Assembly (NCBI GenBank): GCA_036846345.1
Contig: DAIUCD010000005.1
Span: 110,155-174,154 of the forward strand
Origin: Spirochaetota bacterium
GTDB taxonomy: Bacteria > Spirochaetota > UBA4802 > JAGODF01
Length of the DNA: 64,000 bases
Direction of reading: 5' to 3'
This document shows, piece by piece, positions 6,765 through 58,723 of this stretch. Made by a program: the position numbers and the translations under genes. Below the pieces are notes generated by a model that saw only the letters and a program-made list of their open reading frames with translations, ran no database searches and was not told the DNA's origin. Each line of letters begins with the position of its first letter. Positions within the stretch are counted from its first letter, which is position 1.

Positions 6765-7577
6765 TCAGATATCGGGAAACACAGGTTTCTTCTTCTGAAG
6801 GAATGCCGACACGCCATGAAAACACTCTCCTGAGATGATGAGAGCAACCGCGCGGTCCGATTCCTCGGCCAGGGACTCGTTGTAGGTCCGGTTCCTGCTC
6901 TCCCGCAGGAGCGCCAGGGAGTGGCGGATCGCCTGCGGGCCGTTGCCGGCGATGGCCCGGGCCATCGCAACAGCTTCCCCGAGCGCAAGGCCGCGTTCGC
7001 ATATCCTGCTTACCAGTCCCATAGACAGGGCCTCCTCGGCTCCTACACGGCGTCCTGTGAGCACCAGGTCGGCGGCCCTGGAGGCTCCCACGAGACGCGG
7101 AAGCGCGGCGCCGCCGCCGTGATCCGGCATGAGGCCCAGGCTCACCTCGGAATAGCAGATAAAGGCACCCCGGACCATGACCCTGAGGTCACACCGTACA
7201 GCCAGCTCCGCACCTCCGCCGAAGGCGTTTCCGTTCAGGGCGGCGATGGTCGGCACAGGGAGCGAGCAGAAAGCGTCGATGACCTCCCGTATCCTGCTGA
7301 TGGCCTCTCTCGCCGGGACCTCGTCCTTTGCAGTGACTGCGTCGATGAGTCGTTTCATCATGGGATTGTCCGGCTGGACATCGAAACCCGCGCTAAAAGA
7401 CCTGTCGCCGCTTCCGGTGATGACGATTGCCCGAGGGGTGGCTTTGCGAAGTTCCCTGGTAACCTCCTCCAGAAGGGTCAGCATCCTGTCGTTAAAGGAG
7501 TGGTGCCTGTCGGGGCGGTCGAGGGTGACTACCGCGATGTTATCAATTCGATCAAGGGTGATGTTTCCGTCGTTCAT
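6765..7577 (-). CDS. enoyl-CoA hydratase/isomerase (crotonase family)
   Basis: ALNGNAFGGGAELAVRCDLRV oxyanion-hole/catalytic region; 270 aa. Confidence 0.9.
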   Translation of the reverse strand: MNDGNITLDRIDNIAVVTLDRPDRHHSFNDRMLTLLEEVTRELRKATPRAIVITGSGDRSFSAGFDVQPDNPMMKRLIDAVTAKDEVPAREAISRIREVIDAFCSLPVPTIAALNGNAFGGGAELAVRCDLRVMVRGAFICYSEVSLGLMPDHGGGAALPRLVGASRAADLVLTGRRVGAEEALSMGLVSRICERGLALGEAVAMARAIAGNGPQAIRHSLALLRESRNRTYNESLAEESDRAVALIISGECFHGVSAFLQKKKPVFPDI

Positions 7578-7649
7578 ATACTCTCCTCCCGTTATGGATT
7601 GCCGTGTACCCGAAACGCATGTGTCCCTCCGGGGCTCATGCGTCTATGG

Positions 7650-8657
7650 TCAGGACCGGTCTTTCAGAGTGACAACGTTCCTTCCGCGGTGTCGTCCGGC
7701 CTTCATGAGGGATAATACATCTTCCAGGCCATCCAGACCGATCTCATCTGCAAGTTCGTCAAGCCAGGGGAACTTCCAATCCCCGGCAAGATGTCCCCAG
7801 ACCTCCCTCCTTAGGGGCATGGGACAGTTCTGTGAGTCAATACCGAAGAGGGATACCCCGCGCAGGATGAAGGGATATACTGTCAAAGCGAGGTCGGGTG
7901 ATAGGACGTTGCCGCAACAGGTAACACCCCCCCCCGCTATGGTTGACTTGATGGCGTAGGTCAGCACCGGTCCCCCCACCGTGTCGATGCACCCCGCGAA
8001 GCGTTCCTTAAGCAGAGGCCGGTCGGTCACATCGGCGGCCTCATCTGAAGTCACAATCGATTTGGCGCCGCACTTAATCAGCAGGTCCGGTGCGTCCGCC
8101 GGTCCCTGAAGGGCGGCGATAGAATAGCCGAGGTGTGACAGGATGGAGACCGCTATACTCCCAACGCCGCCAGCAGCGCCTGTAACCAGAATTGGGCCGC
8201 GGTCGGGACTGCGCAGCCATCCCAGCAGGCGGTGTACAGAGAGACCAGCGGTAAGACCTGCGGTCCCGAAAATCATACTCTCACGAAGCGTCAATCCCGC
8301 TGGTTTTGGTACAGCCCACGCAGCGGGAACCCGTATGTACTGACCAAATCCACCGGAGGTGTTCATACCGAGGTCGTAGCTCGTGACTATAACCTCGTCA
8401 CCCAGTTTGAACGGGCCGTCTCCGCAGGAGACGACGATTCCCGCCGCGTCAATGCCGGGCGTGTGAGGATAGTTTTTCGTCACGCCCCGGTTGCCTGTTG
8501 CTGAGAGCATGTCCTTGTAGTTAAGCGACGAGTAGTGGACTTCCACGAGCAGGTCGCCTGCGGGCAGGTCATCAATGGTCCGCATCTCGATCTTCCGCAT
8601 AAAGGATTTATCCTCATTTTCCCGTACGACAAGGGCCTTGAACTGTTTTTGTATCAT
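7650..8657 (-). CDS. MDR-family NADPH-dependent oxidoreductase (YhdH/AcuI acrylyl-CoA reductase / quinone oxidoreductase type)
   Basis: KALVV...LLVEVHYSSLNYKD...TPGIDAAGIVV N-terminus typical of the YhdH subfamily; GGVG nucleotide motif; GGAGG RBS. Confidence 0.85.
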   Translation of the reverse strand: MIQKQFKALVVRENEDKSFMRKIEMRTIDDLPAGDLLVEVHYSSLNYKDMLSATGNRGVTKNYPHTPGIDAAGIVVSCGDGPFKLGDEVIVTSYDLGMNTSGGFGQYIRVPAAWAVPKPAGLTLRESMIFGTAGLTAGLSVHRLLGWLRSPDRGPILVTGAAGGVGSIAVSILSHLGYSIAALQGPADAPDLLIKCGAKSIVTSDEAADVTDRPLLKERFAGCIDTVGGPVLTYAIKSTIAGGGVTCCGNVLSPDLALTVYPFILRGVSLFGIDSQNCPMPLRREVWGHLAGDWKFPWLDELADEIGLDGLEDVLSLMKAGRHRGRNVVTLKDRS

Positions 8658-8723
8658 GATTCCTCCTTATAGGTCATAATGGATGATGCGATGTCAATGT
8701 ACCGGTGCGTATTAACGGCTATG

Positions 8724-9326
8724 TTATACGGAAACGTCATCTCCGCGTTGAATATCCTGCAGCGTCAGGATGAGGGATGCGATGGTCGTGTTCAGGTTAT
8801 TACGGGAATGGTCGAGATTGTAGATCACGCAGGCCCCCAGCAGTCCCGTGAAGATGATTTCCGTCACCCGGGCCGTGTCCGCCTCGGGCTTTGTGAATGC
8901 CGCTTCCTTTCCCTCATCAAGGAGACGCTGTATCATGCGTTGAAGCCTCGTGAAGCCCTCGTTCACCTCTGCTGCAAGCTCCGGGTTCTGGCCGGCCAGC
9001 TCCACGGCAAAGGTGACGAAGATGCATCCCCCGGGAAATGTATGGGAGTCGGTAAGGTAAAGGTCGCGGTAGTTTTCCAGGAGCTTTTGCAGCCGTTTCA
9101 GGGGGTTCCCGATCTCATCCAGCCCCGCCAGGTTTCTTTCGCGCCAGATCTTCCTGGCTCTCGAGAGGGCGGCGGTAAAGAGCTCCTCCTTCGTCTTAAA
9201 ATGGTTGTAGAAACCGCCCTTCGATGTCCCGGCAGCGGAGATGATCTCCGTGGTGGAGGTGCTTGCATACCCTTTGAGGGAAAAAAGCTTCAGGGCTTCG
9301 TCGATGATTCGATCTTTCAGTGTCAT
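8724..9326 (-). CDS. TetR/AcrR family transcriptional regulator
   Basis: N-terminal HTH (ALKLFSLKGYASTSTTEIISAAGTSKGGFYNHFKTKEELF). Confidence 0.9.
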   Translation of the reverse strand: MTLKDRIIDEALKLFSLKGYASTSTTEIISAAGTSKGGFYNHFKTKEELFTAALSRARKIWRERNLAGLDEIGNPLKRLQKLLENYRDLYLTDSHTFPGGCIFVTFAVELAGQNPELAAEVNEGFTRLQRMIQRLLDEGKEAAFTKPEADTARVTEIIFTGLLGACVIYNLDHSRNNLNTTIASLILTLQDIQRGDDVSV

Positions 9327-9345
9327 AGGTTTGTGTTGTGTTTAA

Positions 9346-9379
9346 CAGGGAAAACAGACCGACCGGTCTCCCTGTTTTT
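9346..9379 (+). other. GC-rich stem-loop followed by T5 (terminator-like or regulatory hairpin)
   Basis: caggg-aaaac-agacc-gacc-ggtct-ccctg-ttttt read directly from the sequence. Confidence 0.35.
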
Positions 9380-9409
9380 GACATTGCCATTTCACCTGCT
9401 TTGTGTCAA
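9378..9409. promoter_or_regulatory. inverted repeat TTGACA-N20-TGTCAA in the tetR / divergent promoter region; candidate operator or -35 elements
   Basis: ttgacattgccatttcacctgctttgtgtcaa; a TATTAT -10-like hexamer follows at ~9423. Confidence 0.3.
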
Positions 9410-10224
9410 GGAAAAAATGATTTATTATCAGGCCCCTGAGGAAACTGAGGCATGCCCGGGCCCTCTTCTCCATGCATCACCTTCATGTTTCTATAAGGAT
9501 CCGCCTTGGAGGGGGGATGCCTTTCCCATAGTTGATTCATATCTGAACATAATATTTGGTCGTTTTGTCTATATTTATGGGGGGAGAGATGCGGCGGGGT
9601 TAATAAGATGTTCAAAGCATTAAAATTTTGGTTTGGGAATTATCCGGAACTAAAAAAATTTTGTTAGATTTTAAGGCCCACTGAAGAGGGGTTTTTTGCC
9701 TGGGGGGTGTTAACTTCCCGGGTAGTGTATTTTTCATAGAGGCATTCTGTCGAGGAACATTTTGCATTGAAGGGATGGTAATTTCCTAGATATTCAAGGA
9801 GGTGGAGTACATCCCATTGCAACCCGACCCTAAAACCATCCGCCGAAGGCGGATACATGTCGCCTAACTGCAACGCGAAGGGCAGCACTACTGCAGCACT
9901 CAGGCGGGATGCCGTCGGGGTATCGCACTGAACCAAATCCTGCGAAGCAGGTTTGGTGAGTTTAGGCGTCAGGCACTCAGGCGACTGAGGAGAGCGTGGG
10001 GATGTGAAGGAGAGAATTTCGCCTAAAAACTCCTCCTTCGAAAGAGGTTCCTCCTCAGGAACAAGCCCCCCGCCCAGGGGACCAGTAAAGTAAACTCCCT
10101 GAAGTACTTATTGATCAAAGGATTAATCCCCCCAAAAGCAATTGTGCTGAAAATAGAAATCATCCCCCAATGTAATTAAAAAAAGGTTGTACGAAAACCG
10201 AAATCCTGTTTCTACTGTTGACAG

Positions 10225-11046
10225 ATGAAATCACCACCAGTCGAAGATAAGGCATGTATTGATAAAATGAAACCCATAAGAACACTGCCGATCCTACTGA
10301 TAATCCTCCTGGCGGCCTGCGCCACTGTGCCGCCCCCGCCTGTTCCCGAAAGCGAGCAGAGCTCTCTGATCGGCATGGCACTGGTCATCAGCAGCGAGGC
10401 GTATCAGCCGGACAGTCCCTCGGAGGTTCTCTTTATCCGGCTGGAGGAGGGCGATAAATCGTATTTAAGCGTTAATGAGGTCATCAGATCCCATTATGCC
10501 AGAGAGGGGCAGTATTACCTGCTGAACGCGAAGCCCGGGCGTTACATCGCCGTGGCAGCCTGCAGCAGAAGAGGGAAAGGAAAGGGGGACGGCGGGGCAT
10601 CCGCCGTAAAGCAGATGTATTATCTCCCTTTAAAAGTGATGCAGCTTTCCGATGTATCCCTGAAGGAGGGGGAAGCCGCTTTCATGGGCAAATACATGGT
10701 TCATCTGCCCTCCGGGTTTAAATTTTCCACCGGTCTGGCCAATCCGGATGAGGCCCAGTCTTTTTACTGCAAACGGTTCCAGCCGGATCAGCTCGTTCCC
10801 GGCACGGACGGCTATATCAAGGGGGTAATAAAGGGTATCGTCCGCCGAGAAGGAGACGCCGCCCATGCCGTTAAGCTTCAGGAATCTCATAAAGATGCCA
10901 AAAGCGAAATGGAATTCTGGCAAAAGGCCAAGGATCATTTCCGGGGGGATTCCCGGCAGAGAAAGGAATACGGGGATATCGTAGAGAAGAACCAGGTCTG
11001 GCTGAAGATCATCGACCGGCATCTGGATAAACTGAAAGGTCGATAA
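10225..11046 (+). CDS. lipoprotein of unknown function (alternative start at 10267)
   Basis: Signal peptide with lipobox LLAAC; no recognisable enzymatic motif. Confidence 0.6.
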   Translation: MKSPPVEDKACIDKMKPIRTLPILLIILLAACATVPPPPVPESEQSSLIGMALVISSEAYQPDSPSEVLFIRLEEGDKSYLSVNEVIRSHYAREGQYYLLNAKPGRYIAVAACSRRGKGKGDGGASAVKQMYYLPLKVMQLSDVSLKEGEAAFMGKYMVHLPSGFKFSTGLANPDEAQSFYCKRFQPDQLVPGTDGYIKGVIKGIVRREGDAAHAVKLQESHKDAKSEMEFWQKAKDHFRGDSRQRKEYGDIVEKNQVWLKIIDRHLDKLKGR

Positions 11047-11360
11047 CAGAGGATTTCACACGGCTTCCTGTCTCAAGCGGGATCTGATCAATCGGGGCGG
11101 CGGATTCGGCTTGAGGATCCCTCTAGCGGTTCATTAGGCCTGTACGGCGCCGTATGAATGCCGCGCCAACCCCTGGCCTCATAAGGATTCCCTGAAGGAG
11201 CAGCTTTCCCGCCGGATGAAAAAGTAATGGCATAAACATCCCCCCTCCCTTAGGATTGAACCCGGTCAGGACCATGAAAAGGCAAAAGGACAGGAAAGCC
11301 GGGACTGCCCCGGAGTGTTTGGAAGACCGTTCCTGCCGTAGGGGGAGGGATATATAAACA

Positions 11361-12443
11361 ATGGAAGCCCTTATCGGCATCGGAATTGGAATCACCTATT
11401 TCGGATTCGGGCTATGTCTTCTGCAGGCCCTGGAGCGGATACTGGAATCGCGCCGATGGGCGGTGCCGAGGGTTTTCTTCTATATTTTCAACAGCATCAT
11501 CATACTGGGGACAGGGCTCATTGCCGACGGGGTACCTCTTCGGGAGCCGGCCGCGCTGATCCTCTTCCCATCGTCCCTGGTGATCATCGGACCGCTTAAC
11601 CTCTTTTATTATCACTCGCTGCTCTATCCGGCCCGGCCCATCCCGTACCGTACCTGGCTTCATATGGTTCCCTTCCTGTTCAGCCTGGCCGCGGAGATAT
11701 GGTTTCAGGGGCAGACCCTGTCCTTCCGGCGGGAGTTCCTGGCGGCCTTTTTTCGTGATCCCGCGGGGCACGGCATGTTCTGGCCTCTCACGCTCATGGC
11801 CCTCCATGTGCTCGTCTATATGATCTATATCGCCAAGGTGTTTCTTATGGATCTGGGCTTCCGAAGTTCCCGCAGGGAATTCCGTTTCATCGGGTCCATC
11901 GGCGTATCGGTGCTCTTCGTCATCGCCCTGCTGTATACAGGGGTCGTTCGATCATCACCCCTCCTCTTTATTGCCGGGGGTGTCCTAAATGTGATGATCC
12001 ATGTCTACATCTATCTGGGGACACGGCTGTTCCCCCAGTTCTTTTCCTCGCTTAAAATCACCCTGGAAAAAAAGGGCTACGAGCGGTCCATGCTCTCCGG
12101 GCTCAACAAGGAGCTGATCGGACGGAAACTGATGAAGCTGATGGAGGAGGACAGGCTCTTCCTAGACTGTGACATCAGCCTGGCCTCGGTGGCCCGAGAG
12201 CTGTCTCTCACGCCTCATCAGCTGTCGGAGCTTCTGAACGGGCACCTGAAGACGGGCTTTAACGATTTCATCAACCGCTACCGGGTGGAAGAGGCCCGGA
12301 GGCTTCTCAGGGAAGGTCATGAGGCCAATATTACCTCCATCTGTTACCGGGTCGGATTTAACTCCAAATCCACCTTTAATGCGGCCTTCAAGCGGATCAC
12401 GGGATGCACACCCCGGGATTATCGGGAGATGCCTGCGGAGTAA
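11361..12443 (+). CDS. AraC-family transcriptional regulator with N-terminal multi-pass membrane domain
   Basis: ~230 aa hydrophobic N-terminal segment with several predicted TM helices, then C-terminal AraC HTH (ICYRVGFNSKSTFNAAFKRITGCTPRDYR). Confidence 0.85.
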   Translation: MEALIGIGIGITYFGFGLCLLQALERILESRRWAVPRVFFYIFNSIIILGTGLIADGVPLREPAALILFPSSLVIIGPLNLFYYHSLLYPARPIPYRTWLHMVPFLFSLAAEIWFQGQTLSFRREFLAAFFRDPAGHGMFWPLTLMALHVLVYMIYIAKVFLMDLGFRSSRREFRFIGSIGVSVLFVIALLYTGVVRSSPLLFIAGGVLNVMIHVYIYLGTRLFPQFFSSLKITLEKKGYERSMLSGLNKELIGRKLMKLMEEDRLFLDCDISLASVARELSLTPHQLSELLNGHLKTGFNDFINRYRVEEARRLLREGHEANITSICYRVGFNSKSTFNAAFKRITGCTPRDYREMPAE

Positions 12444-12566
12444 GTCCGGGAATTTGTGCGGATTTATAAGATCGGTCGACAGGTCCCTCGAGAAATGATA
12501 CATTCCTCTTGCGGTCACGAGGATTTCCCTTCCGCCGCGACGATATCAACGACAAGGAGTCATCCC

Positions 12567-13157
12567 ATGATGTTTCCGTCAATTTCCGGGGAGGAGAGCG
12601 CCTTCCTCAAATCCCTGCGCCTGCCGCCGGTGTCCCAGATCGGGATCATCGTGCCGGACCTGGCCAGAGCGGCCCGTTATTACGGCCTTCTGCTCAATAT
12701 CAAGAGATGGTATCATCCGCCAATCCGTGAAGCCGAGTGTGCCTACCGGGGAAAGCCCGTGGATCAGAGCCTGGAGATCGCGGTGGGATACAGCGGTGGG
12801 ATTCAAATCGAACTGATTCATCAGGAGTGCTCGGAGGAGAATATCTATAACGCCTTGCTCGGCAGGGGGGGCGGGGGCCTCCACCACCTGGGGGTGTCAG
12901 TGGGGGATATCGACCGACGGATGAAACTTCTCACGGGGGCCGGCCTTCGCCCTCTGCAGAGCGGGGTGATCCGTTTCGGCCGGGGTGGGGTGACCCGGTA
13001 TGTCTATCTGGATACCCGGGAACAGGCGGGCTTCATCCTGGAGCTGATCGAAACCCGGGCCTTCGGAATCAACCTGGGAATGCCGGAATGGGTCATGCGC
13101 CTGGGATTGCTCACAGGGGACACGGTGCCCCTGAAGATCCCCTCACAGGAGCAATGA
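12567..13157 (+). CDS. VOC (glyoxalase/bleomycin-resistance/dioxygenase) family protein
   Basis: Start chosen at the internal ATG after an AGGAG RBS; IGIIVPDLARAARYY and HHLGVSVGDIDRRMKLL paired beta-alpha-beta-beta-beta motifs. Confidence 0.65.
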   Translation: MMFPSISGEESAFLKSLRLPPVSQIGIIVPDLARAARYYGLLLNIKRWYHPPIREAECAYRGKPVDQSLEIAVGYSGGIQIELIHQECSEENIYNALLGRGGGGLHHLGVSVGDIDRRMKLLTGAGLRPLQSGVIRFGRGGVTRYVYLDTREQAGFILELIETRAFGINLGMPEWVMRLGLLTGDTVPLKIPSQEQ

Positions 13158-13158
13158 G

Positions 13159-14142
13159 ATGAAAATTCTGGTAACCGGCGCAACGGGATTCATCGGCTCC
13201 GTTCTCGTAAGGGAGCTTGCGGCAAAAGGGAATACGGTCAGGGCCCTGGCGTTGGCGGGAGAGAACACGTCCCTTCTGGATCGGGCGGGGATTGAGGTCC
13301 GGCGGGGCGATTTGAACGTCCGGGGAAGCCTCCGGGGGATATGTGACGGTATCGATGTCATCTTCCACTGCGCCGCCCGGGTGACCGACTGGGGCACAAA
13401 ACGGCAGTTTTATCGGGCTATTCTGGATGCGACCCAAAACCTTCTCGATGAGGCCCGGGGCCAGGCGTGCCGCTTTGTATATGTCAGCTCCATCGCGGCC
13501 CTGGGCATGGGGCGACATCTCAGGGGGGCAAAGGAGTCCGATGCTCCGCAATGGTCAGGAGTCCCGTACAACGATGCCAAAGCGGACACCGAGAGGCTCG
13601 TCCGGGAATTTCATGACCGTGGGGATATCTCCTGTACCGTTGTCCGCCCTGCCAATGTGACCGGGCCGGGGAGTGTCTGGGTAAGGGATATCCTGGACCA
13701 TATGAGCGGCTTCCTTGGTCTGCCGCTTATCGACGGGGGCCGTTACAGCTCCAGCTTCGTCTATGTGGATAGCCTGGTGGACGGCATGATACGGGCGGGC
13801 ACCCGGGAGAAAGCCGCCGGGAAGACCTACCATTTCCGCGATGACTGGAAGGTTTCCTGGGAAAAATACCTGAAGGACCTGGGGGCCTTTATCGGGAAGA
13901 GACCCCGGGGAAATTACCCCTTCCGCCTGGCATGGGGGATGGGGATGATCATGGAAAGGATCTGCAATCCTCTGCACCTGCGACCGTCAGTTACCCGGCT
14001 GGCGGTGGGAGTCATGGGCAGGGATAACGATGTGGATACGTCGCTGGCGAAAGCCGATCTGGAATGGAACACGACGACTCCCTACGAGGAAGCGCTGGAA
14101 AAAACGGGTCAATGGATACGGAGCCTATACAGGGTTCCGTGA
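13159..14142 (+). CDS. NAD-dependent epimerase/dehydratase family (SDR-extended) protein
   Basis: MKILVTGATGFIGSVLVREL Rossmann motif; start overlaps the upstream stop (ATGA). Confidence 0.85.
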   Translation: MKILVTGATGFIGSVLVRELAAKGNTVRALALAGENTSLLDRAGIEVRRGDLNVRGSLRGICDGIDVIFHCAARVTDWGTKRQFYRAILDATQNLLDEARGQACRFVYVSSIAALGMGRHLRGAKESDAPQWSGVPYNDAKADTERLVREFHDRGDISCTVVRPANVTGPGSVWVRDILDHMSGFLGLPLIDGGRYSSSFVYVDSLVDGMIRAGTREKAAGKTYHFRDDWKVSWEKYLKDLGAFIGKRPRGNYPFRLAWGMGMIMERICNPLHLRPSVTRLAVGVMGRDNDVDTSLAKADLEWNTTTPYEEALEKTGQWIRSLYRVP

Positions 14143-14182
14143 TGTATAGGCAGAGCGGGAAATATCAATCAAGGAGACGGTT

Positions 14183-14548
14183 ATGAGGTTCTCGATCTTG
14201 TTATTTGTGCTGTACCGCATTCTCAGAAGGGCCGCCAGAAAAAACCGGGCTTACGGGAATTACATCGGTTCCATACACAGCGTCCGGATCATGATCAAGA
14301 CGGAAAAGGGCGGCCGGGGTCGGCTTTTTCTCTTCGACAGGGGAACGGTGACGAGCCGGCGGGGAAGCGGCCATGCCTATGACGCTGCGATTGTATGGGC
14401 CGATGCCGGAACCGCCTTTCGGGTGATGTCCTCCCGGAGCGACGAGGCGGCCTTTCTGGCGGCTGCGGCGGGGAAGATGAAGCTCGACGGCATGGCCTTC
14501 TTCGCCCAGTGGTTCAACGACGGGGTTAAAATCGCCATGCCCGGTTAA
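14183..14548 (+). CDS. SCP2 sterol-carrier-like domain protein
   Basis: C-terminal AAAAGKMKLDGMAFFAQ resembles the SCP2 signature; 121 aa. Confidence 0.65.
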   Translation: MRFSILLFVLYRILRRAARKNRAYGNYIGSIHSVRIMIKTEKGGRGRLFLFDRGTVTSRRGSGHAYDAAIVWADAGTAFRVMSSRSDEAAFLAAAAGKMKLDGMAFFAQWFNDGVKIAMPG

Positions 14549-14655
14549 GCCCTAAAGGCGGTTGAGAGGGGGATGTTTATGATAACAACGAAAAACCCGC
14601 AGGGCCGGGACGATTGTTTCGAAAACGATATCACGCTTAGTGAAGGAGGATGAAT

Positions 14656-16329
14656 ATGGCAGCGATCAACGGAGGACATCTGGTTGGAAAGTACCTCAGG
14701 GAGGTGGAGAAGGTCGATATCGTTTTCGGCCTCTCGGGGGGGCATATTGAATCGATACTCGACGGATTCACTGAGTACGACATTCGGACTATAGACGTCC
14801 GTCACGAACAGGCGGCGGCTATGATGGCCCACGCCTGGTCAGTCTATACTGGAAGGACTGGTGTCTGCTTCGTGACGGCGGGGCCCGGTTTTACCAACGC
14901 GCTGACAGGGATAGCCAACGCTTATCTGGATAACGCGCCGATGGTCGTGCTCTGCGGGAGACACCCTCTTCGCGATGACCTGAAGGGAGCCCTCCAGGAA
15001 ATCAACCAGATCGACATGGTGAAACCCGTAGTCAAATGGGCAGCTACCTGCTATGATACCCGGAGGATCCCCGAGTACCTGTCCATCGCCTTCCGGCAGG
15101 CCGTGGAGGGACGGCCCGGACCGGTTTTCCTCGAACTGCCCCCGGATATCCTCAATATCACGGTGGAGGAGGCCGGGGTTCCCATGCCCGTACGTCCGGC
15201 ACGCCGGTACACGGTGCATCCCGATGACAGTGATCTCTCTGCTGCGGCGGATCTGATCAACAGCGCCCGCAAGCCCTTCTTCGTCGGAGGTACCGGAGTG
15301 GGCTTCAGCGTCTGCGGTTCCTGCCTGGCCGGGTTTATGGAAAAGACGGGAATGCCTTTTCAACTGCTCAATTACGGGAGGGGTGAGCTTCCTGACAAGC
15401 ATCCGCTCTCCCTTACCGAAACAGGCAGCATTGGGCTCATGACATCGATTCAGCAGGCCGATGTCATCGTTGCCGCCGGTCTCCGGTTCAACTGGATACT
15501 GCAGTCCGGGGCGATCATTCCTCCTTCAGCCAAGGTGGTACGGATCGATATCGATCCCCATGAAATAGACCGTAACCGCATGGCGGACGTCGGTCTTGTG
15601 GGAGACGTCGGATCGGTCCTCTCCCAGCTCACACCGCTGTTGAACCAGAGGGATCACAGCGGATGGATCGAAACGCTGAGAGCGGCGTCGAGTTCCCTGC
15701 TGGATTACGAAATCCGCATGAGGGCTAATCCCTCCGATCCCATTCATCCCCTGAGGCTCGTAGCCCGAATACAGGAATTTGCCGGAGAGGATGCGCTCTA
15801 CATCGCCGATGGCGGCGACACGGTCTATTTTGGCATAACGGGTTTTTCCTCCCGTCATCGGGCTGGGGTCATCGGGACCGCTTCGGGTCTGCTGGGATGC
15901 CTGGGTACGGGAATCCCCTTCGCCATGGCAGCCAAGCTCGCCAGGCCCGAGAGGAAAGTGATCCTCCTGAACGGCGACGGGTCCATGGGATTCAATGCCA
16001 TGGAATTCGATACTATGGTTCGTCACAATATCCCGATCGTCTGTGTCGTCAATAACGACTGCGCCTGGGGAATGATCAAACACAGCCAGGAACTCTCTCT
16101 GGGCAAGGAGCGTCTTCAATGTTCCGAGCTGGGCCTCCGGCATTATGAGAAGATGGTGGAGGGACTGGGGGGATACGGCGAGCTGGTGACCAGCGACGAT
16201 GAGATCGTGCCGGCGCTGGAAAGGGCTGTGGCTTCGGGGAAACCCGCCTGTATCAACGTGATCACTGATCCCACGGTCACCAGTCCTGCCACGCCGCTGT
16301 TCTATCAGTCCCTCAAGATGGACCAGTGA
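14656..16329 (+). CDS. thiamine-diphosphate-dependent enzyme (acetolactate synthase / oxalyl-CoA decarboxylase / 2-hydroxyacyl-CoA lyase superfamily)
   Basis: RHEQAAAMMA (Pyr domain), ThDP-binding GDGSMGFNAMEFDTMVRHNIPIVCVVNNDCAWGMI; start at the ATG 6 nt after AGGAGG. Confidence 0.85.
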   Translation: MAAINGGHLVGKYLREVEKVDIVFGLSGGHIESILDGFTEYDIRTIDVRHEQAAAMMAHAWSVYTGRTGVCFVTAGPGFTNALTGIANAYLDNAPMVVLCGRHPLRDDLKGALQEINQIDMVKPVVKWAATCYDTRRIPEYLSIAFRQAVEGRPGPVFLELPPDILNITVEEAGVPMPVRPARRYTVHPDDSDLSAAADLINSARKPFFVGGTGVGFSVCGSCLAGFMEKTGMPFQLLNYGRGELPDKHPLSLTETGSIGLMTSIQQADVIVAAGLRFNWILQSGAIIPPSAKVVRIDIDPHEIDRNRMADVGLVGDVGSVLSQLTPLLNQRDHSGWIETLRAASSSLLDYEIRMRANPSDPIHPLRLVARIQEFAGEDALYIADGGDTVYFGITGFSSRHRAGVIGTASGLLGCLGTGIPFAMAAKLARPERKVILLNGDGSMGFNAMEFDTMVRHNIPIVCVVNNDCAWGMIKHSQELSLGKERLQCSELGLRHYEKMVEGLGGYGELVTSDDEIVPALERAVASGKPACINVITDPTVTSPATPLFYQSLKMDQ

Positions 16330-16347
16330 TTCGGGTCAAGGGGGGAT

Positions 16348-17562
16348 ATGAAAGCGCTGATACTGCATGCCGAGCCCTGGCGTTACGGGCTTCTTCAGGG
16401 ACTGAGAGCTTTGAGCACGAAATTCTGCTATACCGGCCCGCTTTCCTCGTTGAAACTGGCAGATGTTCCGGAACCGGCGCTACCCTCTCCGGAATGGCTC
16501 AGGATCAGGACCCGGCTTTGCGGCTTCTGTGGCAGCGACCTGAACCTGATCCTGATGAAGGATTCCCCCACCGCTATGCCCTTCACCTCCTTCCCCTGCG
16601 TGCCCGGCCATGAGATCTGCGGCCAGATCGTCGAAAAAGGGCGCGAGGCAGGTGATTTTAAGCCGGGGGATCTGGTTGTCGTATCCCCCCAGCTCAACTG
16701 CGAAACCCGGGGCATCCATCCCTCCTGTTCCAGCTGCGCCGGCGGACACACCTCCAACTGCGAAAACTATGCTGAGGGCAGCCTGGCACCGGGACTGTTT
16801 ACGGGCATATGCCGGGACATCAACGGGGGATTTGCCCCTTACCTGGTGGCTCATCGAAGCCAGCTCTTCCGTGTCCCGGCCGGGACGACACCGGAATCGG
16901 CAGTTCTCACCGAACCCCTGGCCGTAGCCCTTCAGGCGGTGCTGGACAACCGGCCGCACGATGAGGAAAGTATTCTGGTAATCGGAGGTGGTGTGATCGG
17001 CCTCCTGGTGGTCCGGGTCATCCGGTCCCTGGGCTGTCAATGCCGCATTACCGTCGCAGATCCGTCCTCCCTTGCGACGGAGTATGCCGTTAACAGCGGG
17101 GCGGATAAGGTCATTTCCGGGAATATCATCGATGCAGCCGTGGAGATTACGGGGGGGCGCACCTATAAACCCCTTCTGGGGGAGCCTATCGTGATGGGGG
17201 GATTTCACCGCATCTACGATACCGTGGGATCCCGGCAGACCCTTCACCGCGCCATGCGGATTCTGGCAACGGCGGGCGTCCTCTCCGTGCTGGGCATAGG
17301 GGGGCATGTGAAACTTGACCTGACGCCGCTATGGCTTAAGTTGCAGTCCATACGAGGCTGCTACGGGTACGGGTGGCATAAGACCGGCAGGACTATGAAT
17401 CCCGTTTTCGGGATGGCCCTGGATATGATAGCCTGGAAAAAAGTTTCCGTAATGGATATGCTGACTCATACCTATCCCCTGGAGGAATATCGAACCCTGA
17501 TAGATGTAAATCTCAATAAAGGGAAGAACCGTGCCATGAAAACGGCGTTTCTATTTGATTAA
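16348..17562 (+). CDS. zinc-dependent alcohol dehydrogenase (MDR family)
   Basis: GHEICGQIVEKG zinc-ligand motif, GGGVIGLLVV Rossmann motif. Confidence 0.85.
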   Translation: MKALILHAEPWRYGLLQGLRALSTKFCYTGPLSSLKLADVPEPALPSPEWLRIRTRLCGFCGSDLNLILMKDSPTAMPFTSFPCVPGHEICGQIVEKGREAGDFKPGDLVVVSPQLNCETRGIHPSCSSCAGGHTSNCENYAEGSLAPGLFTGICRDINGGFAPYLVAHRSQLFRVPAGTTPESAVLTEPLAVALQAVLDNRPHDEESILVIGGGVIGLLVVRVIRSLGCQCRITVADPSSLATEYAVNSGADKVISGNIIDAAVEITGGRTYKPLLGEPIVMGGFHRIYDTVGSRQTLHRAMRILATAGVLSVLGIGGHVKLDLTPLWLKLQSIRGCYGYGWHKTGRTMNPVFGMALDMIAWKKVSVMDMLTHTYPLEEYRTLIDVNLNKGKNRAMKTAFLFD

Positions 17563-17606
17563 ACCCTGATACCAGTTTGTCCTCCCAATAAAATTATAAA
17601 AAAATG

Positions 17607-17635
17607 AATAATATGGTTGACTTTCCCCTGAAAGT
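17607..17635 (+). promoter_or_regulatory. putative sigma70 promoter (TTGACT -35; weak TTTATT -10)
   Basis: ttgactttcccctgaaagtatattttatt upstream of the acyltransferase gene. Confidence 0.3.
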
Positions 17636-17647
17636 ATATTTTATTGA

Positions 17648-17663
17648 TGGATAATATGACTGA
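17648..17663. promoter_or_regulatory. perfect 7-bp-arm inverted repeat GACTGAC-tg-GTCAGTC (candidate operator)
   Basis: Lies between the putative promoter and the start codon at 17699. Confidence 0.4.
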
Positions 17664-17698
17664 CTGGTCAGTCTAATATCGTGTGAAAGGCAGGGGAT

Positions 17699-18532
17699 AT
17701 GATCAACTTCGACGGTATTCAGTCACGGGTTCATTTCGTATCCAGGTACATCACCGAGATGAGGGTCAAGGCTCTTGAGGAGATCAGACCTCTCCGGGAA
17801 AACAAGTTTCTTCTGGGGCTCTATCAGGTTTACAAGTGGATAATCTATATCCCCTTCCTCGTCGTGAGCACGACGGCTCTGGGGACCGCTGCAACGGTGC
17901 TGGCCATCGTCTTCGGCGGCAGGATCGCCTCCCTCATGGGGGTCCTTTGGTCCAAGCTCAACAGCTACATGACACCAATGTTCGTGGATGTCATCGGTAA
18001 AGAGAAAATTGATCGACGCCAGTCCTATGTCATTGTGGCCAATCATCAGAGCCAGTTCGATATCTTCGTCATTTACGGATGGATGCCTGTGGATTTCCGC
18101 TGGGTGATGAAAATTCAGTTGAGGAAGGTGCCTTTCCTGGGCTACAGCTGTTACCGGATCGGGCATGTATTCATCGACCGGTCCCATCCCGATAAGGCCA
18201 AGGCCAGCATCAACGAAGCCAGGGAGCGTATCAAGGGCGGAACCTCCATAATGTTCTTCCCCGAAGGGACCAGGAGCGATGACGGACAGCTCATCGAGTT
18301 TAAGAAGGGAGCCTTCAAGTTTGCCATGGACATGGGTCTGACGGTACTGCCCGTGACCATCGTGGGGACCCGGAATATCCTGCCGGCCAGATCGATGAAA
18401 CTCTTTCCCGGCTATGCCAGGCTCGTCATCCACGATCCCATCGACATCAGGGGTTATACGGAAGAGAACATGGATGAGCTCGTGAGGACAGCACGGTACC
18501 GCATTGATCAGGGTCTTAGGCAGTATTCCTGA
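17699..18532 (+). CDS. plsC: lysophospholipid (1-acyl-sn-glycerol-3-phosphate) acyltransferase, PlsC family
   Basis: NHQSQFD (HX4D) and FPEGTRS motifs; N-terminal TM. Confidence 0.8.
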   Translation: MINFDGIQSRVHFVSRYITEMRVKALEEIRPLRENKFLLGLYQVYKWIIYIPFLVVSTTALGTAATVLAIVFGGRIASLMGVLWSKLNSYMTPMFVDVIGKEKIDRRQSYVIVANHQSQFDIFVIYGWMPVDFRWVMKIQLRKVPFLGYSCYRIGHVFIDRSHPDKAKASINEARERIKGGTSIMFFPEGTRSDDGQLIEFKKGAFKFAMDMGLTVLPVTIVGTRNILPARSMKLFPGYARLVIHDPIDIRGYTEENMDELVRTARYRIDQGLRQYS

Positions 18533-19381: not shown

Positions 19382-20314
19382 ATGGATTTTACGAAATCTC
19401 TGTTCCGCAAAGAATTCTTCATAAAGGCCTTTCAGGTGATCTCGGGTCTGATTATTCTACCCCGAATAAGTCCTCTGTCCCGGCTTTTTGCCGCAAGGAA
19501 TGACGCCCTTGTGGTCATCAGGGGGGCCGATCTTTCCAAGGGCACCATTGAGAATATGGTGAAAAAGGGTTTCGAGGCCATGGGAGGCATCGACCGGTTC
19601 ATCAAGAAAGGAATGAAAGTGGTCATCAAGCCCAATATAGGCTGGAACTCGCCTCCGGAGAGAGCGCATAATACCAACCCGTATATTGTGGAGACGGTGG
19701 CCCGGATGTGCCGGGAGAGGGGCGCCCGGGTGCAGGTCTTCGACCGCACTTGCAACAAGGCGAGCCTCTGTTACGTGAACAGCGGGATCCGCAAGGCGGC
19801 CAAGAATGCCGGCGCCGCTATCGAATATATCGATTCCCGCCGTTACCGCAAGGTTCCCGTTAAGAAGGGCCTCAAGCAGAAATACCTCTACGTCTATGAG
19901 GATATGATCAAGGCGGATTTCGTCATAAATATCCCCATCGCCAAGCATCACAGCCTGGCTCAGCTCACCCTGTCCATGAAGAATCTTATGGGTGTCCTGG
20001 GGGGCAACCGGGGGGATTATCATCATAACATGGACGAGAACATCGTGGATTTTACCAAGGCTATACGGACGGACCTGACGATCATGGATGCCACCCGCAT
20101 CCTTACGGATCACGGTCCCAGCGGGGGGACGCTGGATGATGTGAAGGTGATGAAGACGATCATCTTCGGCAAAAATCCCGTGACCGTGGACGCTTACACG
20201 ACTACGCTCTTCGGCAGGGAGCCCCGCTCCATCGGATACATCAAGCTGGCGGGAGCCGAGGGGATGGGGGAGATCAATGTGAAGAAGATGCGTATTACCC
20301 ATAAAACCGTATGA
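19382..20314 (+). CDS. DUF362 domain protein
   Basis: VVIKPNIGWNSPPERAHNTNPYIVETVARMCRERGA matches the conserved DUF362 core. Confidence 0.7.
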   Translation: MDFTKSLFRKEFFIKAFQVISGLIILPRISPLSRLFAARNDALVVIRGADLSKGTIENMVKKGFEAMGGIDRFIKKGMKVVIKPNIGWNSPPERAHNTNPYIVETVARMCRERGARVQVFDRTCNKASLCYVNSGIRKAAKNAGAAIEYIDSRRYRKVPVKKGLKQKYLYVYEDMIKADFVINIPIAKHHSLAQLTLSMKNLMGVLGGNRGDYHHNMDENIVDFTKAIRTDLTIMDATRILTDHGPSGGTLDDVKVMKTIIFGKNPVTVDAYTTTLFGREPRSIGYIKLAGAEGMGEINVKKMRITHKTV

Positions 20315-21945
20315 AGAGCCCCCGCTGGTCACAACTGCGTGCCCTTGCTCAACTGGCTCTCTGGCTGGCGTTCCTCCTTTTCATCGTGACGCTTCGCTTT
20401 CCCGTGGAGAACGAGGGTGCCTATGCCCTGGTGCCGCGCCTCTCGCCTCATCTCGCACTGACGGCCTCTCTATCGACCCGGGAAGCTCTGACGGTCTTTT
20501 ATCCCGCCCTGATCGTTCTGATCCTGACTCTGGTTTTGGGGCGTTTCTTCTGCGGATGGATCTGCCCTCTGGGGATCACCCTGGACGGGACCGACAGGAT
20601 CGTAAAAACCGGCGGGAACCATCTGCAGTTCGGTAAAAGCGGAGAGAAGGATCTGCGGTACGGGAAGTACCTGGTCCTCACGGGGTCCCTGATCCTCGCC
20701 CTGGCGGGATTTCAGGCGGCGGGGCTTATCGATCCCCTCTCACTGGTTGTGCGCAGCTACGGTCTTGTTGTGTATCCCTATCTGGATTTTTCTCTCAAAG
20801 GTATATTTCAGGCCCTGGGGCATATCCCGGGGGTATCCCACGCGTCGGAACCCCTGTTTTCCCTGCTGAAGGGGTCGTTGCTGGATCTCAATCCCATACT
20901 CTTCTCCGGTCATATCACCGTGCTGCTCTTTTTCCTTGTTCTTCTCCTCCTTTCGCGGATGGCCCGGCGCTTCTGGTGCCGGTCGCTCTGTCCCCTGGGG
21001 GCCGTGCTGGCCCTGACCTCGCGTTTTTCCTTCTTTCGAAGGAAAGTATCCGTGGAAAAATGCACCCATTGCCTGAAGTGCCAGCGGGACTGCCGCATGG
21101 GGGCCATCGAGGGGAAGGGCCTTGCCACCCGGGAAGAGGAATGCATCAAGTGTTTCGAATGCCTGCAGTCCTGCTCCTATGACGCCATTTCCTTCGGCTT
21201 CGGCAATCCCTTCGCCAAAGAGCAGGCCGTTCCCCGGGAGGAGGGGGATGAGAAGGCGGAGCCGGAGGCCTCACCGGGAGGGCTGACGCGGAAAAGGCTG
21301 CTGGCGGGGGTCGTCTCCTCCGCGGCGCTGGTGCCGGTTCTTAAAATCAACGCCCAGTACCGCGCCGATTTCTCCCATCTCATCAGGCCCCCCGGCGCCC
21401 TGCGGGAAGAGGATTTCCTGGACCGGTGCATCCGCTGCGGCGAGTGCATGAAGGCCTGTCCCACCAACGGTTTGCACCCGGCGCTTTTGGAAGCGGGTGT
21501 GGAAGGGCTCTTTACACCGCGCCTGATCCCCCGGCTGGGCTGGTGTGAAAAGAACTGCAATCTCTGCACCCTGGTCTGTCCCACCGGCGCCCTCAAGAGG
21601 CTCGAACTGGCGGACAGGGAGACGACGGTGATCGGGACAGCCTATTTTATTCATGATCTCTGCATCCCCTGGTCGGAAAACCGGGAATGCCTGGTTTGCG
21701 AGGAGATGTGTCCCACCCAGACGAAGTCCATACGCTTCCGGGAGGAGACGGTGCTGGACAGGAAGAACCGGACGGTGCGGATCAAGCGTCCCTACGTGGT
21801 GGAGGATATCTGCATCGGCTGCGGGATCTGCGAAAACAAATGTCCGGTCCCGGGAAGCGCGGCCATAAGGGTGAGAACCCCCAAGAACGTGCCCCTCTCG
21901 GCCCTCACATCCCAGAAGGGCGAAGGCGGCTATGGAGGGGAATGA
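20311..21945 (+). CDS. membrane-bound polyferredoxin (NapH/MauN-like N-terminus plus six 4Fe-4S ferredoxin motifs)
   Basis: TM helices with FFCGWICPLG, then CxxCxxCxxxCP repeated six times; start overlaps the DUF362 stop (ATGA). Confidence 0.8.
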   Translation: MKSPRWSQLRALAQLALWLAFLLFIVTLRFPVENEGAYALVPRLSPHLALTASLSTREALTVFYPALIVLILTLVLGRFFCGWICPLGITLDGTDRIVKTGGNHLQFGKSGEKDLRYGKYLVLTGSLILALAGFQAAGLIDPLSLVVRSYGLVVYPYLDFSLKGIFQALGHIPGVSHASEPLFSLLKGSLLDLNPILFSGHITVLLFFLVLLLLSRMARRFWCRSLCPLGAVLALTSRFSFFRRKVSVEKCTHCLKCQRDCRMGAIEGKGLATREEECIKCFECLQSCSYDAISFGFGNPFAKEQAVPREEGDEKAEPEASPGGLTRKRLLAGVVSSAALVPVLKINAQYRADFSHLIRPPGALREEDFLDRCIRCGECMKACPTNGLHPALLEAGVEGLFTPRLIPRLGWCEKNCNLCTLVCPTGALKRLELADRETTVIGTAYFIHDLCIPWSENRECLVCEEMCPTQTKSIRFREETVLDRKNRTVRIKRPYVVEDICIGCGICENKCPVPGSAAIRVRTPKNVPLSALTSQKGEGGYGGE

Positions 21946-45512: not shown

Positions 45513-46144
45513 AAATCAACCTCATATTTGAAATTAAGATATGTTGATACCGGTTCCCCGGAATTGAGTGTAATCACTGCCTGAAGGGGGATATGCCTCA
45601 CATCAAGCGGTATAAGGGATTTCTGCTGGGGAATGATGCATTGAGGGTTTTCCAGAGCAAAGGTGCGGATAACTTCGCGATCCAGGGATTTCATAAAGGA
45701 TTTGGCCTCCTGTGTTTTCAAAAGCAGTATACCCGGCTTTTCACCCACTTCGAATGTAGTGATGGTCTGATCCATGTATTTTATCTTTACGGTAAGTATC
45801 GAAAGCCCCTTAAAGGGCAGGGTGATGTCTTTTAGGCTGTTGGAATTGATGGTGAGGGAGAAAATATACTGATCCGATTTTTTCCTGCGGGAGACGGTAT
45901 AACGGAAACTGGCATTCCTGTAGCTCAGGCTCGTTGTAAAATAGGGACTATCGGAATGCTCTGATTTGAAAAGATAGATGATAGTCAGGACAAGAAGGAG
46001 ATTTATGAAAAGAAGGAACCCGGGAACTTTCCTCTTATTCGATGGCCGTTTCTCTTTCTTATCAGAATAGATTCTGTCAAGAAGCTCTTTTGTCAGTGGA
46101 CTCTTTGGTTCCATATTCACCTGGTTTAATGAAAACCGTAACAA
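45509..46144 (-). CDS. single-pass membrane hypothetical protein
   Basis: TM helix at residues ~40-60; start overlaps the dCMP deaminase stop; AT-rich. Confidence 0.45.
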
Positions 46145-46373
46145 TTAACAATTTTACCAGAAATAAGATTATTGTAAACGACTTTCCCTGTCAATCAACT
46201 CTAAGGACTCTGCGGAAAAACTTATAGTAACGAAAATTATAATCAGAAAATTTACTTGATCTTTTGATCAGAATGTGTTTGACTTGTAAAGTCGCAAATC
46301 ATGTGTTTGATTGCCGGTATCATTGATCTCCTCGATTATTGGAATCGGAATACATTATACTTGATCAATATGA

Positions 46374-48102
<1,729 letters not shown>

Positions 48103-58710: not shown

Positions 58711-58723
58711 GAGGTAGATTCCT

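Follow-up and report, generated by a model that had tools for sequence, protein, structure and literature searches.

Whether a run of adjacent bacterial genes that all seem to deal with acyl-coenzyme A (acyl-CoA) or lipid substrates is a single metabolic island, or a row of unrelated units that happen to lie side by side, is the question raised by a 64,000-nucleotide stretch of DNA from a Spirochaetota bacterium (NCBI GenBank assembly GCA_036846345.1, contig DAIUCD010000005.1, positions 110,155 to 174,154 of the forward strand), hereafter called the window and numbered from its first letter. Between positions 6765 and 18532 it carries genes for an enoyl-CoA hydratase (ECH), a YhdH/AcuI-type reductase, a TetR regulator, a lipoprotein, an AraC-family regulator with a membrane-embedded N-terminal domain, a string of five further proteins (VOC, SDR, SCP2, a thiamine diphosphate (ThDP) enzyme and a zinc-dependent alcohol dehydrogenase (ADH)) and a PlsC acyltransferase; the original prediction took them for one acyl-CoA or lipid island under dual TetR/AraC control. 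Every gene so listed is present, according to the listing of open reading frames (ORFs), to Pfam and NCBIfam profile searches of the window ORFs and, for the SCP2 protein, to a structural model; the unity of the 12-kb island did not survive the comparison with related genomes, since ECH, YhdH, TetR, the lipoprotein and PlsC accompany the rest in just 0-2 of 80 loci. The neighbourhoods of relatives (80 loci of the ThDP enzyme and 80 metagenome loci of YhdH) separate the region into a chance juxtaposition of at least four units, namely tetR-yhdH/acuI-ech, a lone lipoprotein gene, a (membrane-)araC-VOC-SDR-SCP2-ThDP-ADH cassette and plsC, and what looked like a lipid island is mostly a coincidental gene neighbourhood. 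The cassette, which is the main subject of the present work, is self-contained and mobile, its core consisting of the SCP2-fold protein, the ThDP enzyme and a Zn-dependent polyol-type dehydrogenase.

Organization and Conservation of the Cassette

The genes of the cassette and of its AraC regulator are the following.

11361-12443, plus strand: AraC-family regulator with a membrane-embedded N-terminal domain (HTH_18/HTH_AraC at residues 278-356)
probably 12567-13157, plus strand: VOC/Glyoxalase_4 protein, 196 aa (PF13669, E = 1.6e-15; start as called on an identical metagenome contig)
13159-14142, plus strand: extended SDR, an NAD(P) oxidoreductase (Epimerase 109 bits, 3Beta_HSD 72, NAD_binding_4 67)
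14183-14548, plus strand: 121-aa protein of predicted SCP2 fold (AlphaFold2 model and Foldseek)
14656-16329, plus strand: ThDP enzyme, 557 aa (TPP_enzyme_N/M/C domains)
16348-17562, plus strand: Zn-dependent medium-chain dehydrogenase (ADH), 404 aa (ADH_N and ADH_zinc_N)

From the VOC gene to the ADH gene the string is co-directional and tightly spaced, as had been described, with intergenic gaps of 1, 40, 107 and 18 nt; the start of the ThDP gene at 14656 lies two codons inside a 559-aa ORF, and the relative P0001 is 100% identical over the 557 aa. Searching one genome per species yielded 570 relatives of the ThDP enzyme; the best 80 of these (68-82% identical, all from metagenome-assembled genomes) served as cassette loci, whose neighbours were counted by searching the window proteins against them. 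Loci flanked by 3.5 kb or more on each side, 45 in number, were taken as full, that is assessable. By record title about 55 of these 80 belong to Desulfobacterota (Smithella, Syntrophales, Desulfomonilia, Desulfobacterales and Desulfatiglandales), 15 to Spirochaetota or Leptospirales and a few to other labels. The counts of genes near the ThDP gene are given below.

SCP2 protein, immediately upstream of the ThDP gene: 77 of 80 loci; 44 of 45 full loci
ADH: 70 of 80 loci; 42 of 45 full loci
SDR: 34 of 80 loci; 20 of 45 full loci
VOC: 15 of 80 loci; 10 of 45 full loci
Membrane AraC: 6 of 80 loci; 4 of 45 full loci
ECH, PlsC: 1-2 of 80 loci
YhdH, window TetR, lipoprotein: 0 of 80 loci

Contig ends account for most of the loci short of a cassette gene, and in the 45 full loci the cassette genes are always co-directional. 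The position of the VOC gene varies (upstream or downstream of the core), and in some Desulfobacterales loci the order is ADH>SCP2>ThDP>SDR>VOC, the set being kept despite the rearrangement; in Spirochaetae HGW-1, the order araC(TM)-VOC-SDR-SCP2-ThDP-ADH is identical to that of the window. The median intergenic gaps in the cassette loci are 63, 9 and 49 nt, and from locus to locus the three core proteins have pairwise identities that correlate with r = 0.81-0.85, so that these proteins are inherited or transferred together. Because the set persists under rearrangement, the gaps are short and the identities correlate, the cassette is regarded as a single unit; the earlier views that SCP2, ThDP enzyme and ADH belong together, and that they do not make up a beta-oxidation operon, are supported.

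The surroundings of the cassette are far less constant. In the annotated neighbourhoods of three long contigs, the flanks are unrelated between genomes, and beside the cassette 15 of the 80 loci have a different TetR and 5 have an AraC of the Arabinose_bd type; given the varied flanks and the varied regulators, the cassette is a self-contained module in differing contexts, placed under whatever regulator the host supplies, the membrane-embedded AraC being likely the local regulator here. Besides these alternative regulators, no further conserved partner emerged from de novo clustering of the neighbouring ORFs (80 loci, -8 to +10 kb); in particular, genes for a CoA ligase, a CoA transferase, a thioesterase or the handling of formyl-CoA are not among the conserved neighbours of the cassette in the 80 loci or in the annotated neighbourhoods. 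The plasmid collection holds no homologue of the SCP2 protein, and Rfam gave no match for a riboswitch or other RNA in or near the cassette. The plus strand carries at 19382-21945 two genes overlapping by 4 nt, a DUF362 gene and, beginning within it, that of a protein of 544 aa in which Fer4_5 and several 4Fe-4S motifs are recognised; DUF362 homologues (24-38% identity) lie about 4-7.5 kb from the cassette in 4 of the 80 loci, probably by coincidence.

The ThDP Enzyme

Relatives of the ThDP enzyme are annotated as "acetolactate synthase (large subunit)" (by JGI), "thiamine pyrophosphate-binding protein" or "hypothetical protein". The best NCBIfam match of the window protein, PRK05858, is likewise labelled acetolactate synthase (ALS), the second-best being NF058623, a model for the 2-hydroxyacyl-CoA lyase (HACL) from actinobacteria; the protein falls under every curated NCBIfam cut-off (NF058623, 353 vs 600; TIGR00118, for ALS, 330 vs 538; another model, 414 vs 587). 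When solved structures are ranked by sequence with phmmer, the actinobacterial HACL (AcHACL) scores 281 bits, HACL/S (a 2-hydroxyacyl-CoA lyase/synthase) 265, benzaldehyde lyase (BAL) 263, oxalyl-CoA decarboxylase (OXC) 223 and ALS at most 202; the top 50 Foldseek matches of the AlphaFold2 model (pLDDT 74.5) are HACL/S, BAL/formolase, AcHACL and OXC structures, with no ALS among them. Sequence ranking and modelled structure thus assign the enzyme to a distinct subfamily of the BAL/HACL/OXC clade and not to the acetolactate synthases; an affiliation with the latter, which the original prediction had held to be incompatible with its own view, is not what was found, the best matches in both sequence and structure being HACL, BAL and OXC.

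Within this clade the whole-protein scores and the structure do not decide between BAL and HACL (the window protein is 34.3% identical to BAL, 34.1% to AcHACL and 29.4% to OXC, and the family hidden Markov model (HMM) scores them at 351, 336 and 315 bits, respectively), and the residue-level comparison alone is informative. For this comparison 75 family members were aligned with AcHACL, BAL (2ag0) and OfOXC (2c31), the sequences of BAL and OfOXC being verified as exact to the PDB entries and that of AcHACL being taken from a printed alignment. The catalytic residues of BAL are His29 and Gln113, which act with the cofactor Glu50. In HACL/S, acyl-CoA is bound by an Arg pair (R260/R400 in ApbHACL/S, equivalent to OfOXC R266/R408) and contacted by a C-terminal covering peptide (R, K, Q, W), ADP is bound by a second Arg pair (R156/R276 in HACL/S, equivalent to OfOXC R160/R282), and HACL/S carries the motifs F/Y-E (116-117) and a G-I-P loop (31-33) (PMC11271303); AcHACL contacts CoA through R273, R362 and R417 and has a catalytic E493 on the active-site helix and a lid formed by residues 556-590 (PMC8760513). 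The state of these positions in the family is as follows.

First acyl-CoA Arg (HACL/S R260 = OXC R266): L/I/M/V in the family
Second acyl-CoA Arg (HACL/S R400 = OXC R408): Y, 74 of 75
AcHACL R273, R362, R417: G, F/L, L/I
AcHACL catalytic E493: I/V
HACL/S F/Y-E: L113-Q114, 75 of 75, as in BAL and AcHACL
HACL/S G-I-P loop: G-G-H (G29, H30), as in BAL and AcHACL
AcHACL C-terminal lid 556-590: absent; the window protein ends near the equivalent of AcHACL residue 572
BAL H29, Q113, E50: conserved (H30 74 of 75, Q114 75 of 75, E51 75 of 75)
BAL L112-Q113, Y397: conserved in the family; Y397 is not in AcHACL
ADP-site Arg of OXC and HACL/S (R160, R282): conserved (R153, R277, 75 of 75)

Overall, the acyl-CoA-binding Arg columns are replaced in 73-75 of the 75 members, BAL being equally non-basic there, and Q128 of AcHACL is conserved in the family. 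The BAL-type H29 and Q113 do not discriminate BAL from HACL, since AcHACL has them too, and the ADP-site Arg residues are weakly diagnostic, since BAL also carries the second of them. On the active-site helix, the pair K475-H476 (AWGMIKHSQ) is invariant and family-specific, replacing R494 of AcHACL, L482-H483 of BAL and Y483 of OXC, and is a candidate catalytic or substrate-binding feature. On the basis of this residue table the family appears to be a distinct branch whose substrate-binding signature looks more like that of the CoA-independent BAL than that of any CoA-dependent member. The acyl-CoA substrate formerly suggested for the core enzyme finds no support here, the acyl-CoA-binding Arg being replaced and no CoA ligase or transferase being conserved nearby.

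The SCP2-Fold Protein

The 121-aa protein encoded immediately upstream of the ThDP enzyme is matched by no Pfam or NCBIfam model, even at E = 10 (PF02036 included), and a profile built from 36 of its homologues finds nothing among the PDB sequences. Its AlphaFold2 model, built on the homologue alignment, has a pLDDT of 90.9 and a pTM of 0.85; the 42 best Foldseek matches of this model in the PDB are all SCP2 folds, the best being UbiJ-SCP2 (E = 9e-6, TM 0.68-0.70), and the others including TT1886, AF1534, the SCP2 proteins of animals and yeast and the SCP2 domain found in alkylsulfatases. The model thus assigns to the protein the alpha/beta fold of SCP2; the earlier guess of an SCP2 protein was right, given this fold match and a fused relative that reaches the Pfam SCP2 threshold. 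This relative, P0260 (23 bits to PF02036 vs a cut-off of 21.3), is the lone one at threshold among 260 relatives of the SCP2-like domain found by a profile search of 1.84 billion representative proteins.

In fused relatives the SCP2-like domain lies N-terminal to 3-hydroxyisobutyrate/beta-hydroxyacid dehydrogenases or to molybdopterin oxidoreductases resembling the large subunit of pyrogallol transhydroxylase (P0260, P0272, P0299 and P0356, of ~420 aa; P0342, P0344 and P0374). These fusions fit a substrate-presenting role and suggest that the domain is a reusable accessory of (anaerobic) oxidoreductases acting on poorly soluble substrates. Among the top 150 proteins of the same search, no fusion of SCP2 to a ThDP enzyme was found. 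A possible role of the N-terminal helix of the 121-aa protein as a membrane anchor was considered and rejected; its hydropathy is below threshold, and the helix belongs to the modelled fold.

The Other Proteins of the Cassette

The best solved relatives of the ADH are 4ej6, 3ip1, threonine dehydrogenase and (R,R)-butanediol dehydrogenase, two of its relatives being uncharacterised structural-genomics proteins; sorbitol/iditol and galactitol-1-phosphate dehydrogenases are also among the nearest. Alignment to 4ej6 reveals the catalytic Cys/His/Glu ligands and the four-Cys structural Zn site, with the motifs CGFCGSD, PGHE and C-x9-C-x2-C-x7-C; no equivalog cut-off of NCBIfam is reached. By these similarities, the ADH is classed with the dehydrogenases of the vicinal-polyol/threonine/butanediol type; polyol-type dehydrogenases oxidise a secondary alcohol beside another heteroatom-bearing carbon. 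The SDR has the YxxxK motif and is closest to enzymes of the 3beta-HSD/NSDHL, OleD and HpnA type, which act on lipidic 3-hydroxy/3-oxo groups; the HpnA and OleD models stay below their cut-offs. The best solved relative of the VOC protein is 3gm5 (52 bits). The AraC protein has about 6-7 hydrophobic segments in residues 1-220 (by hydropathy), and in Spirochaete-labelled relatives a membrane AraC sits at this place too (6 of 80 loci, and L085). The hydrophobic substrate of the original prediction is plausible in view of the fold of the SCP2 protein, of the resemblance of the SDR to 3beta-HSD/OleD and of the AraC embedded in the membrane.

Proposed Function and Alternative Explanations

The chemistry of the cassette we infer, its gene anatomy having been observed. 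Tentatively, the cassette is taken to encode what is probably a CoA-independent lyase or carboligase for a hydrophobic acyloin or vicinal diol, together with an SCP2 carrier and two dehydrogenases. The SCP2 protein would hold a poorly soluble substrate and pass it to the enzymes, as UbiJ and UbiT do with ubiquinone intermediates; the polyol-type medium-chain dehydrogenase, and the SDR where present, would interconvert a secondary alcohol or vicinal diol with an alpha-hydroxy-ketone or aldehyde, setting the oxidation state (diol to acyloin, or aldehyde to alcohol); the ThDP enzyme would carry out the reversible cleavage or formation of a C-C bond beside a carbonyl, of the acyloin type as in benzaldehyde lyase and probably with no CoA thioester; and the VOC protein may act on the alpha-hydroxy-carbonyl compound as an epimerase or isomerase, via an enediolate. 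Parallel pathways are known in butanediol/acetoin catabolism, in cyclohexane-1,2-diol degradation (two dehydrogenases and a ThDP-dependent C-C hydrolase) and in the BAL-dependent growth on benzoin. Since the regulators are ligand-type and variable (AraC, TetR), an inducible catabolic or detoxifying role is favoured over housekeeping biosynthesis.

Several observations weigh against this proposal. The CoA-dependent HACLs are placed marginally first by both phmmer and Foldseek; H29 and Q113 are common to AcHACL, and both ADP-site Arg of OXC and HACL/S are kept (R153, R277). The C-terminal tail of the family, ...TSPATPLFYQSLKM, is conserved and of OXC-like length, in a part of the protein with no confident alignment and low pLDDT. 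The residue argument comes from alignments at about 30-34% identity, and another mode of CoA binding is possible; the ThDP model is moderate (pLDDT 74.5), with low confidence exactly at the active-site loops. The VOC protein is weakly similar to methylmalonyl-CoA epimerase (model, 35 bits vs a cut-off of 115; solved enzymes, ~23 bits), scores so low that they are no evidence for a CoA substrate. Finally, we infer the direct interaction between SCP2 protein and enzyme from adjacency alone.

A possible, on balance doubtful, alternative is a true 2-hydroxyacyl-CoA lyase/synthase, which would convert long or branched 2-hydroxyacyl-CoA into formyl-CoA and an aldehyde, as in a bacterial alpha-oxidation, or work in reverse as a one-carbon elongation, with the ADH handling the aldehyde, the SCP2 protein carrying acyl-CoA as in peroxisomal alpha-oxidation and the VOC protein acting as an acyl-CoA epimerase. 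It agrees with the best phmmer match (AcHACL, 281 bits), with the actinobacterial HACL model as second in NCBIfam, with HACL/S structures as the top Foldseek matches, with the retained ADP-site Arg and with the weak epimerase similarity of the VOC protein, and the window has an ECH and a gene of the acrylyl-CoA reductase family 4-7 kb off; these two are, however, not conserved neighbours, the acyl-CoA-binding Arg pair, the F-E and G-I-P motifs, E493 of AcHACL and the long lid are all absent, the scores lie far under the curated cut-offs (353 vs 600 and 414 vs 587), and CoA ligase, CoA transferase, formyl-CoA-handling or thioesterase genes are not conserved near the cassette. An ordinary acetolactate/acetoin module, composed of an acetolactate synthase and a butanediol-type dehydrogenase with the remaining genes incidental, is what the JGI label "acetolactate synthase large subunit", the PRK05858 match and the similarity of the ADH to (R,R)-butanediol dehydrogenase would suggest at first sight; it is very improbable, because the solved ALS/AHAS enzymes score ~200 bits or less vs 262-281 for HACL and BAL, are absent from the top 50 structural matches and have all their models below the cut-offs, and because instead of an acetolactate decarboxylase or an ACT-type small subunit the enzyme has a strictly conserved SCP2 partner.

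Two further explanations would extend the function of the cassette to its neighbours in the window. The cassette might be biosynthetic, making an unusual membrane or signalling lipid, for instance a long-chain acyloin or vicinal diol from fatty aldehydes, which PlsC would then acylate; the SCP2 fold, the OleD/HpnA/NSDHL-like SDR, the plsC gene directly downstream with a palindrome before it, and the fact that BAL-type enzymes are reversible carboligases all speak for such a role, which is nonetheless improbable, as PlsC is a neighbour in a single locus of the 80, where it lies on the other strand, the patchy distribution and the substrate-type regulators (AraC, TetR) are typical of catabolic modules, and the conserved neighbours include no fatty-acyl reductase and no gene that would generate an aldehyde. 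That the whole 12-kb region is one TetR/AraC regulon for an acyl-CoA or lipid substrate would account for the physical proximity of the genes, here and in identical metagenome contigs, and for the operator-like palindromes before tetR and plsC, and is scarcely credible: ECH, YhdH, the window TetR, the lipoprotein and PlsC are not companions of the cassette across the 80 loci, the tetR-yhdH-ech triad exists elsewhere without it, and the units lie on opposite strands and are kept apart by 940 nt devoid of genes and by the unrelated gene of the lipoprotein.

A bolder form of the CoA-independent reading is that the SCP2 protein serves a ThDP lyase of a new kind as its obligate small subunit, a carrier which in place of a CoA handle would bring long-chain or other water-insoluble aldehydes, acyloins or vicinal diols to a BAL-like active site, and that the system has spread horizontally between Desulfobacterota and Spirochaetota. 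This is unlikely; were it true, strict anaerobes would possess an O2- and CoA-independent way of cutting and making C-C bonds of lipids, based on a previously unrecognised enzyme architecture and pathway.

Comparison with Known Systems

BAL is a CoA-independent reversible acyloin lyase. With the enzyme from Pseudomonas fluorescens (2ag0), the family shares the three-domain ThDP fold, the clade, the best family-HMM score (351 bits) and 34% identity, the residues H29, E50, L112-Q113 and Y397 are kept, and the CoA-binding positions are equally non-basic; in contrast, A480, H286, H415 and W163 of BAL are replaced by M/L/S/P and the family has its invariant K475-H476. To our knowledge, neither an SCP2 partner nor a linked dehydrogenase is known for BAL. 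HACL/S, AcHACL (= HICL) and OXC are the top sequence and structure matches and have in common with the family the ThDP-activating Glu, as well as the L-Q pair (AcHACL) and the ADP-site Arg (HACL/S and OXC); unlike them, the family is without the acyl-CoA Arg, F/Y-E, G-I-P, E493 and the long lid, and has no linked CoA-metabolising genes.

For the carrier, the closest precedent is that of UbiJ and UbiT, small SCP2 proteins which present hydrophobic substrates to the soluble enzymes of ubiquinone biosynthesis (PMC9499169). The concept of presentation would be the same and UbiJ-SCP2 is the best structural match (TM 0.68-0.70); identity is 9-13%, no Ubi genes lie nearby, and the partner is here a ThDP enzyme. 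Peroxisomal alpha-oxidation works on CoA esters and requires an acyl-CoA synthetase and a 2-hydroxylase. Its combination of a ThDP lyase of the same clade (HACL1; PMC11271303 for HACL) with an SCP2 carrier and aldehyde oxidoreduction resembles the cassette, whereas neither an acyl-CoA synthetase nor a 2-hydroxylase is linked to the latter and its CoA-binding residues are absent.

Among anaerobes, the acetone activation of Desulfococcus biacutus and Desulfosarcina cetonica involves a ThDP enzyme for which the conversion of a ketone into a 2-hydroxyacyl product has been proposed, and D. biacutus has an inducible Zn-dependent "threonine-type" dehydrogenase (PMC4103992, PMC7888143); the ThDP protein of D. 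biacutus, found in the membrane fraction, has 685 aa and is 22% identical to AcHACL (PMC4103992, PMC7176365). A ThDP enzyme and a threonine-type Zn-dependent dehydrogenase in an anaerobe are common to both systems; the B12 mutase, the MeaB and the SDR of the acetone cluster are absent from the cassette loci, no mutase or MeaB-like family being conserved within -8 to +10 kb of the 80 loci or in the annotated neighbourhoods. By its length and its 22% identity to AcHACL, the D. biacutus ThDP protein belongs to a different family. A closer link, suggested by its 685 aa, about the sum of SCP2 and ThDP proteins, was rejected in a comparison by description, in view of this identity, of the lack of SCP2-ThDP fusions among the top 150 proteins of the profile search and of the absent mutase cluster.

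In the literature searched, neither a ThDP enzyme with an SCP2 partner, nor the cassette, nor relevant BAL operons in anaerobes are described. Judging from the sequences, the family represents a subfamily of BAL/HACL-clade lyases that is new and has a lipid carrier as its dedicated partner, and it is encoded in a widely conserved, uncharacterised operon of anaerobic bacteria. ThDP lyases of this clade are prized for one-carbon and acyloin chemistry, and few natural subfamilies have been characterised; the present one, at about 70-84% identity, spans two phyla and hundreds of loci; it is devoid of the signature of CoA binding and has an SCP2 carrier and a dehydrogenase of the polyol type for partners. 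Should this pairing be functional, it would point to an anaerobic route, unknown so far, for alpha-hydroxy-carbonyl compounds of hydrophobic character, and would offer a natural means of feeding insoluble substrates to a carboligase; the routine annotations "acetolactate synthase" and "hypothetical protein" are in any case corrected.

The Neighbouring Units

The remaining features of the 12-kb region are listed below.

6765-7577, minus strand: enoyl-CoA hydratase, ECH (Pfam/NCBIfam)
7650-8657, minus strand: YhdH/AcuI-family enoyl/acrylyl-CoA reductase (TIGR02823, 403 bits vs cut-off 297)
8724-9326, minus strand: TetR regulator (Pfam/NCBIfam)
9351-9378, unstranded: imperfect 14+14-nt palindrome, candidate TetR operator (AAAACAGACCGACC / GGTCTCCCTGTTTT, 79% complementary)
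10267-11046, plus strand: lipoprotein gene (signal peptide and lipobox LAAC; start as called on an identical metagenome contig)
17658-17673, unstranded: palindrome GACTGAC-TG-GTCAGTC, 25 nt 5' of the plsC ATG
17699-18532, plus strand: PlsC-type lysophospholipid acyltransferase (PF01553; TIGR00530, 114 bits vs cut-off 103)

The acyl-CoA flavour attributed to the whole region is firm for ECH and YhdH alone. In the tetR-yhdH-ech triad the gaps are 66 and 72 nt; YhdH scores above the cut-off of the subfamily model TIGR02823 and below that of the AcuI equivalog NF051456 (271 vs 440). Of 80 loci retrieved by a metagenome scan with YhdH (57-80% identity), about 6 contain the triad (L089, L101, L139, L143, L145 and L158), at 55-75% identity and with order and orientation unchanged; in none of the 80 is the cassette found, the lone ThDP match being 25% identical. 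The triad is thus a small recurrent unit of its own, reminiscent of the acuR-acuI system of acrylate/acrylyl-CoA detoxification with an added ECH. The candidate TetR operator lies 25 nt upstream of the tetR start codon; TetR heads this separate unit, which occurs elsewhere without the cassette, and the dual TetR/AraC control once proposed is not borne out.

Between tetR and the lipoprotein gene, a stretch of 940 nt (9327-10266), unusually long for a bacterial intergenic region, contains no credible ORF, Pfam-bearing product or Rfam match (best Rfam E = 0.28, to a viral untranslated region). The lipoprotein has no recognised domain in the profile search and no homologue in the 80 cassette loci. 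At the other end, plsC follows after a 136-nt gap with -10/-35-like hexamers, and the operator-like palindrome noted earlier is present just downstream of the -10-like hexamer; it is unique in the window, with a chance expectation of 0.12 for the exact pattern, and scans for terminators and promoters gave no excess over the shuffled expectation. PlsC, which has N-terminal hydrophobic segments by hydropathy, is found near the cassette in 1 of 80 loci, on the opposite strand there, and its gene is a separate one, not linked to the cassette elsewhere. A single lipid island under dual control is therefore unsupported, because of the separation by the gene-less gap and the lipoprotein gene, of the promoter-like site that plsC has of its own, of the lack of linkage of plsC and of the recurrence of the triad alone.

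The Wider Window

Near 46-48 kb the G+C content drops from about 0.48-0.60 (1-46000) to about 0.38-0.45 (~46000-64000), the studied region being compositionally like its 40-kb surroundings; the low-GC part holds housekeeping genes (enolase, 46386-47690; PFOR, 50557-54084; gatB, 61591-63051). Either much of the window, the studied region among it, is of foreign composition, or the contig is chimeric. The sole Rfam match at gathering threshold in the window is a full-length 6S (SsrS) RNA gene at 55188-55370 on the minus strand (97 bits vs a gathering score of 46), and a very large ORF of 1754 aa lies at 32149-37413 on the plus strand.

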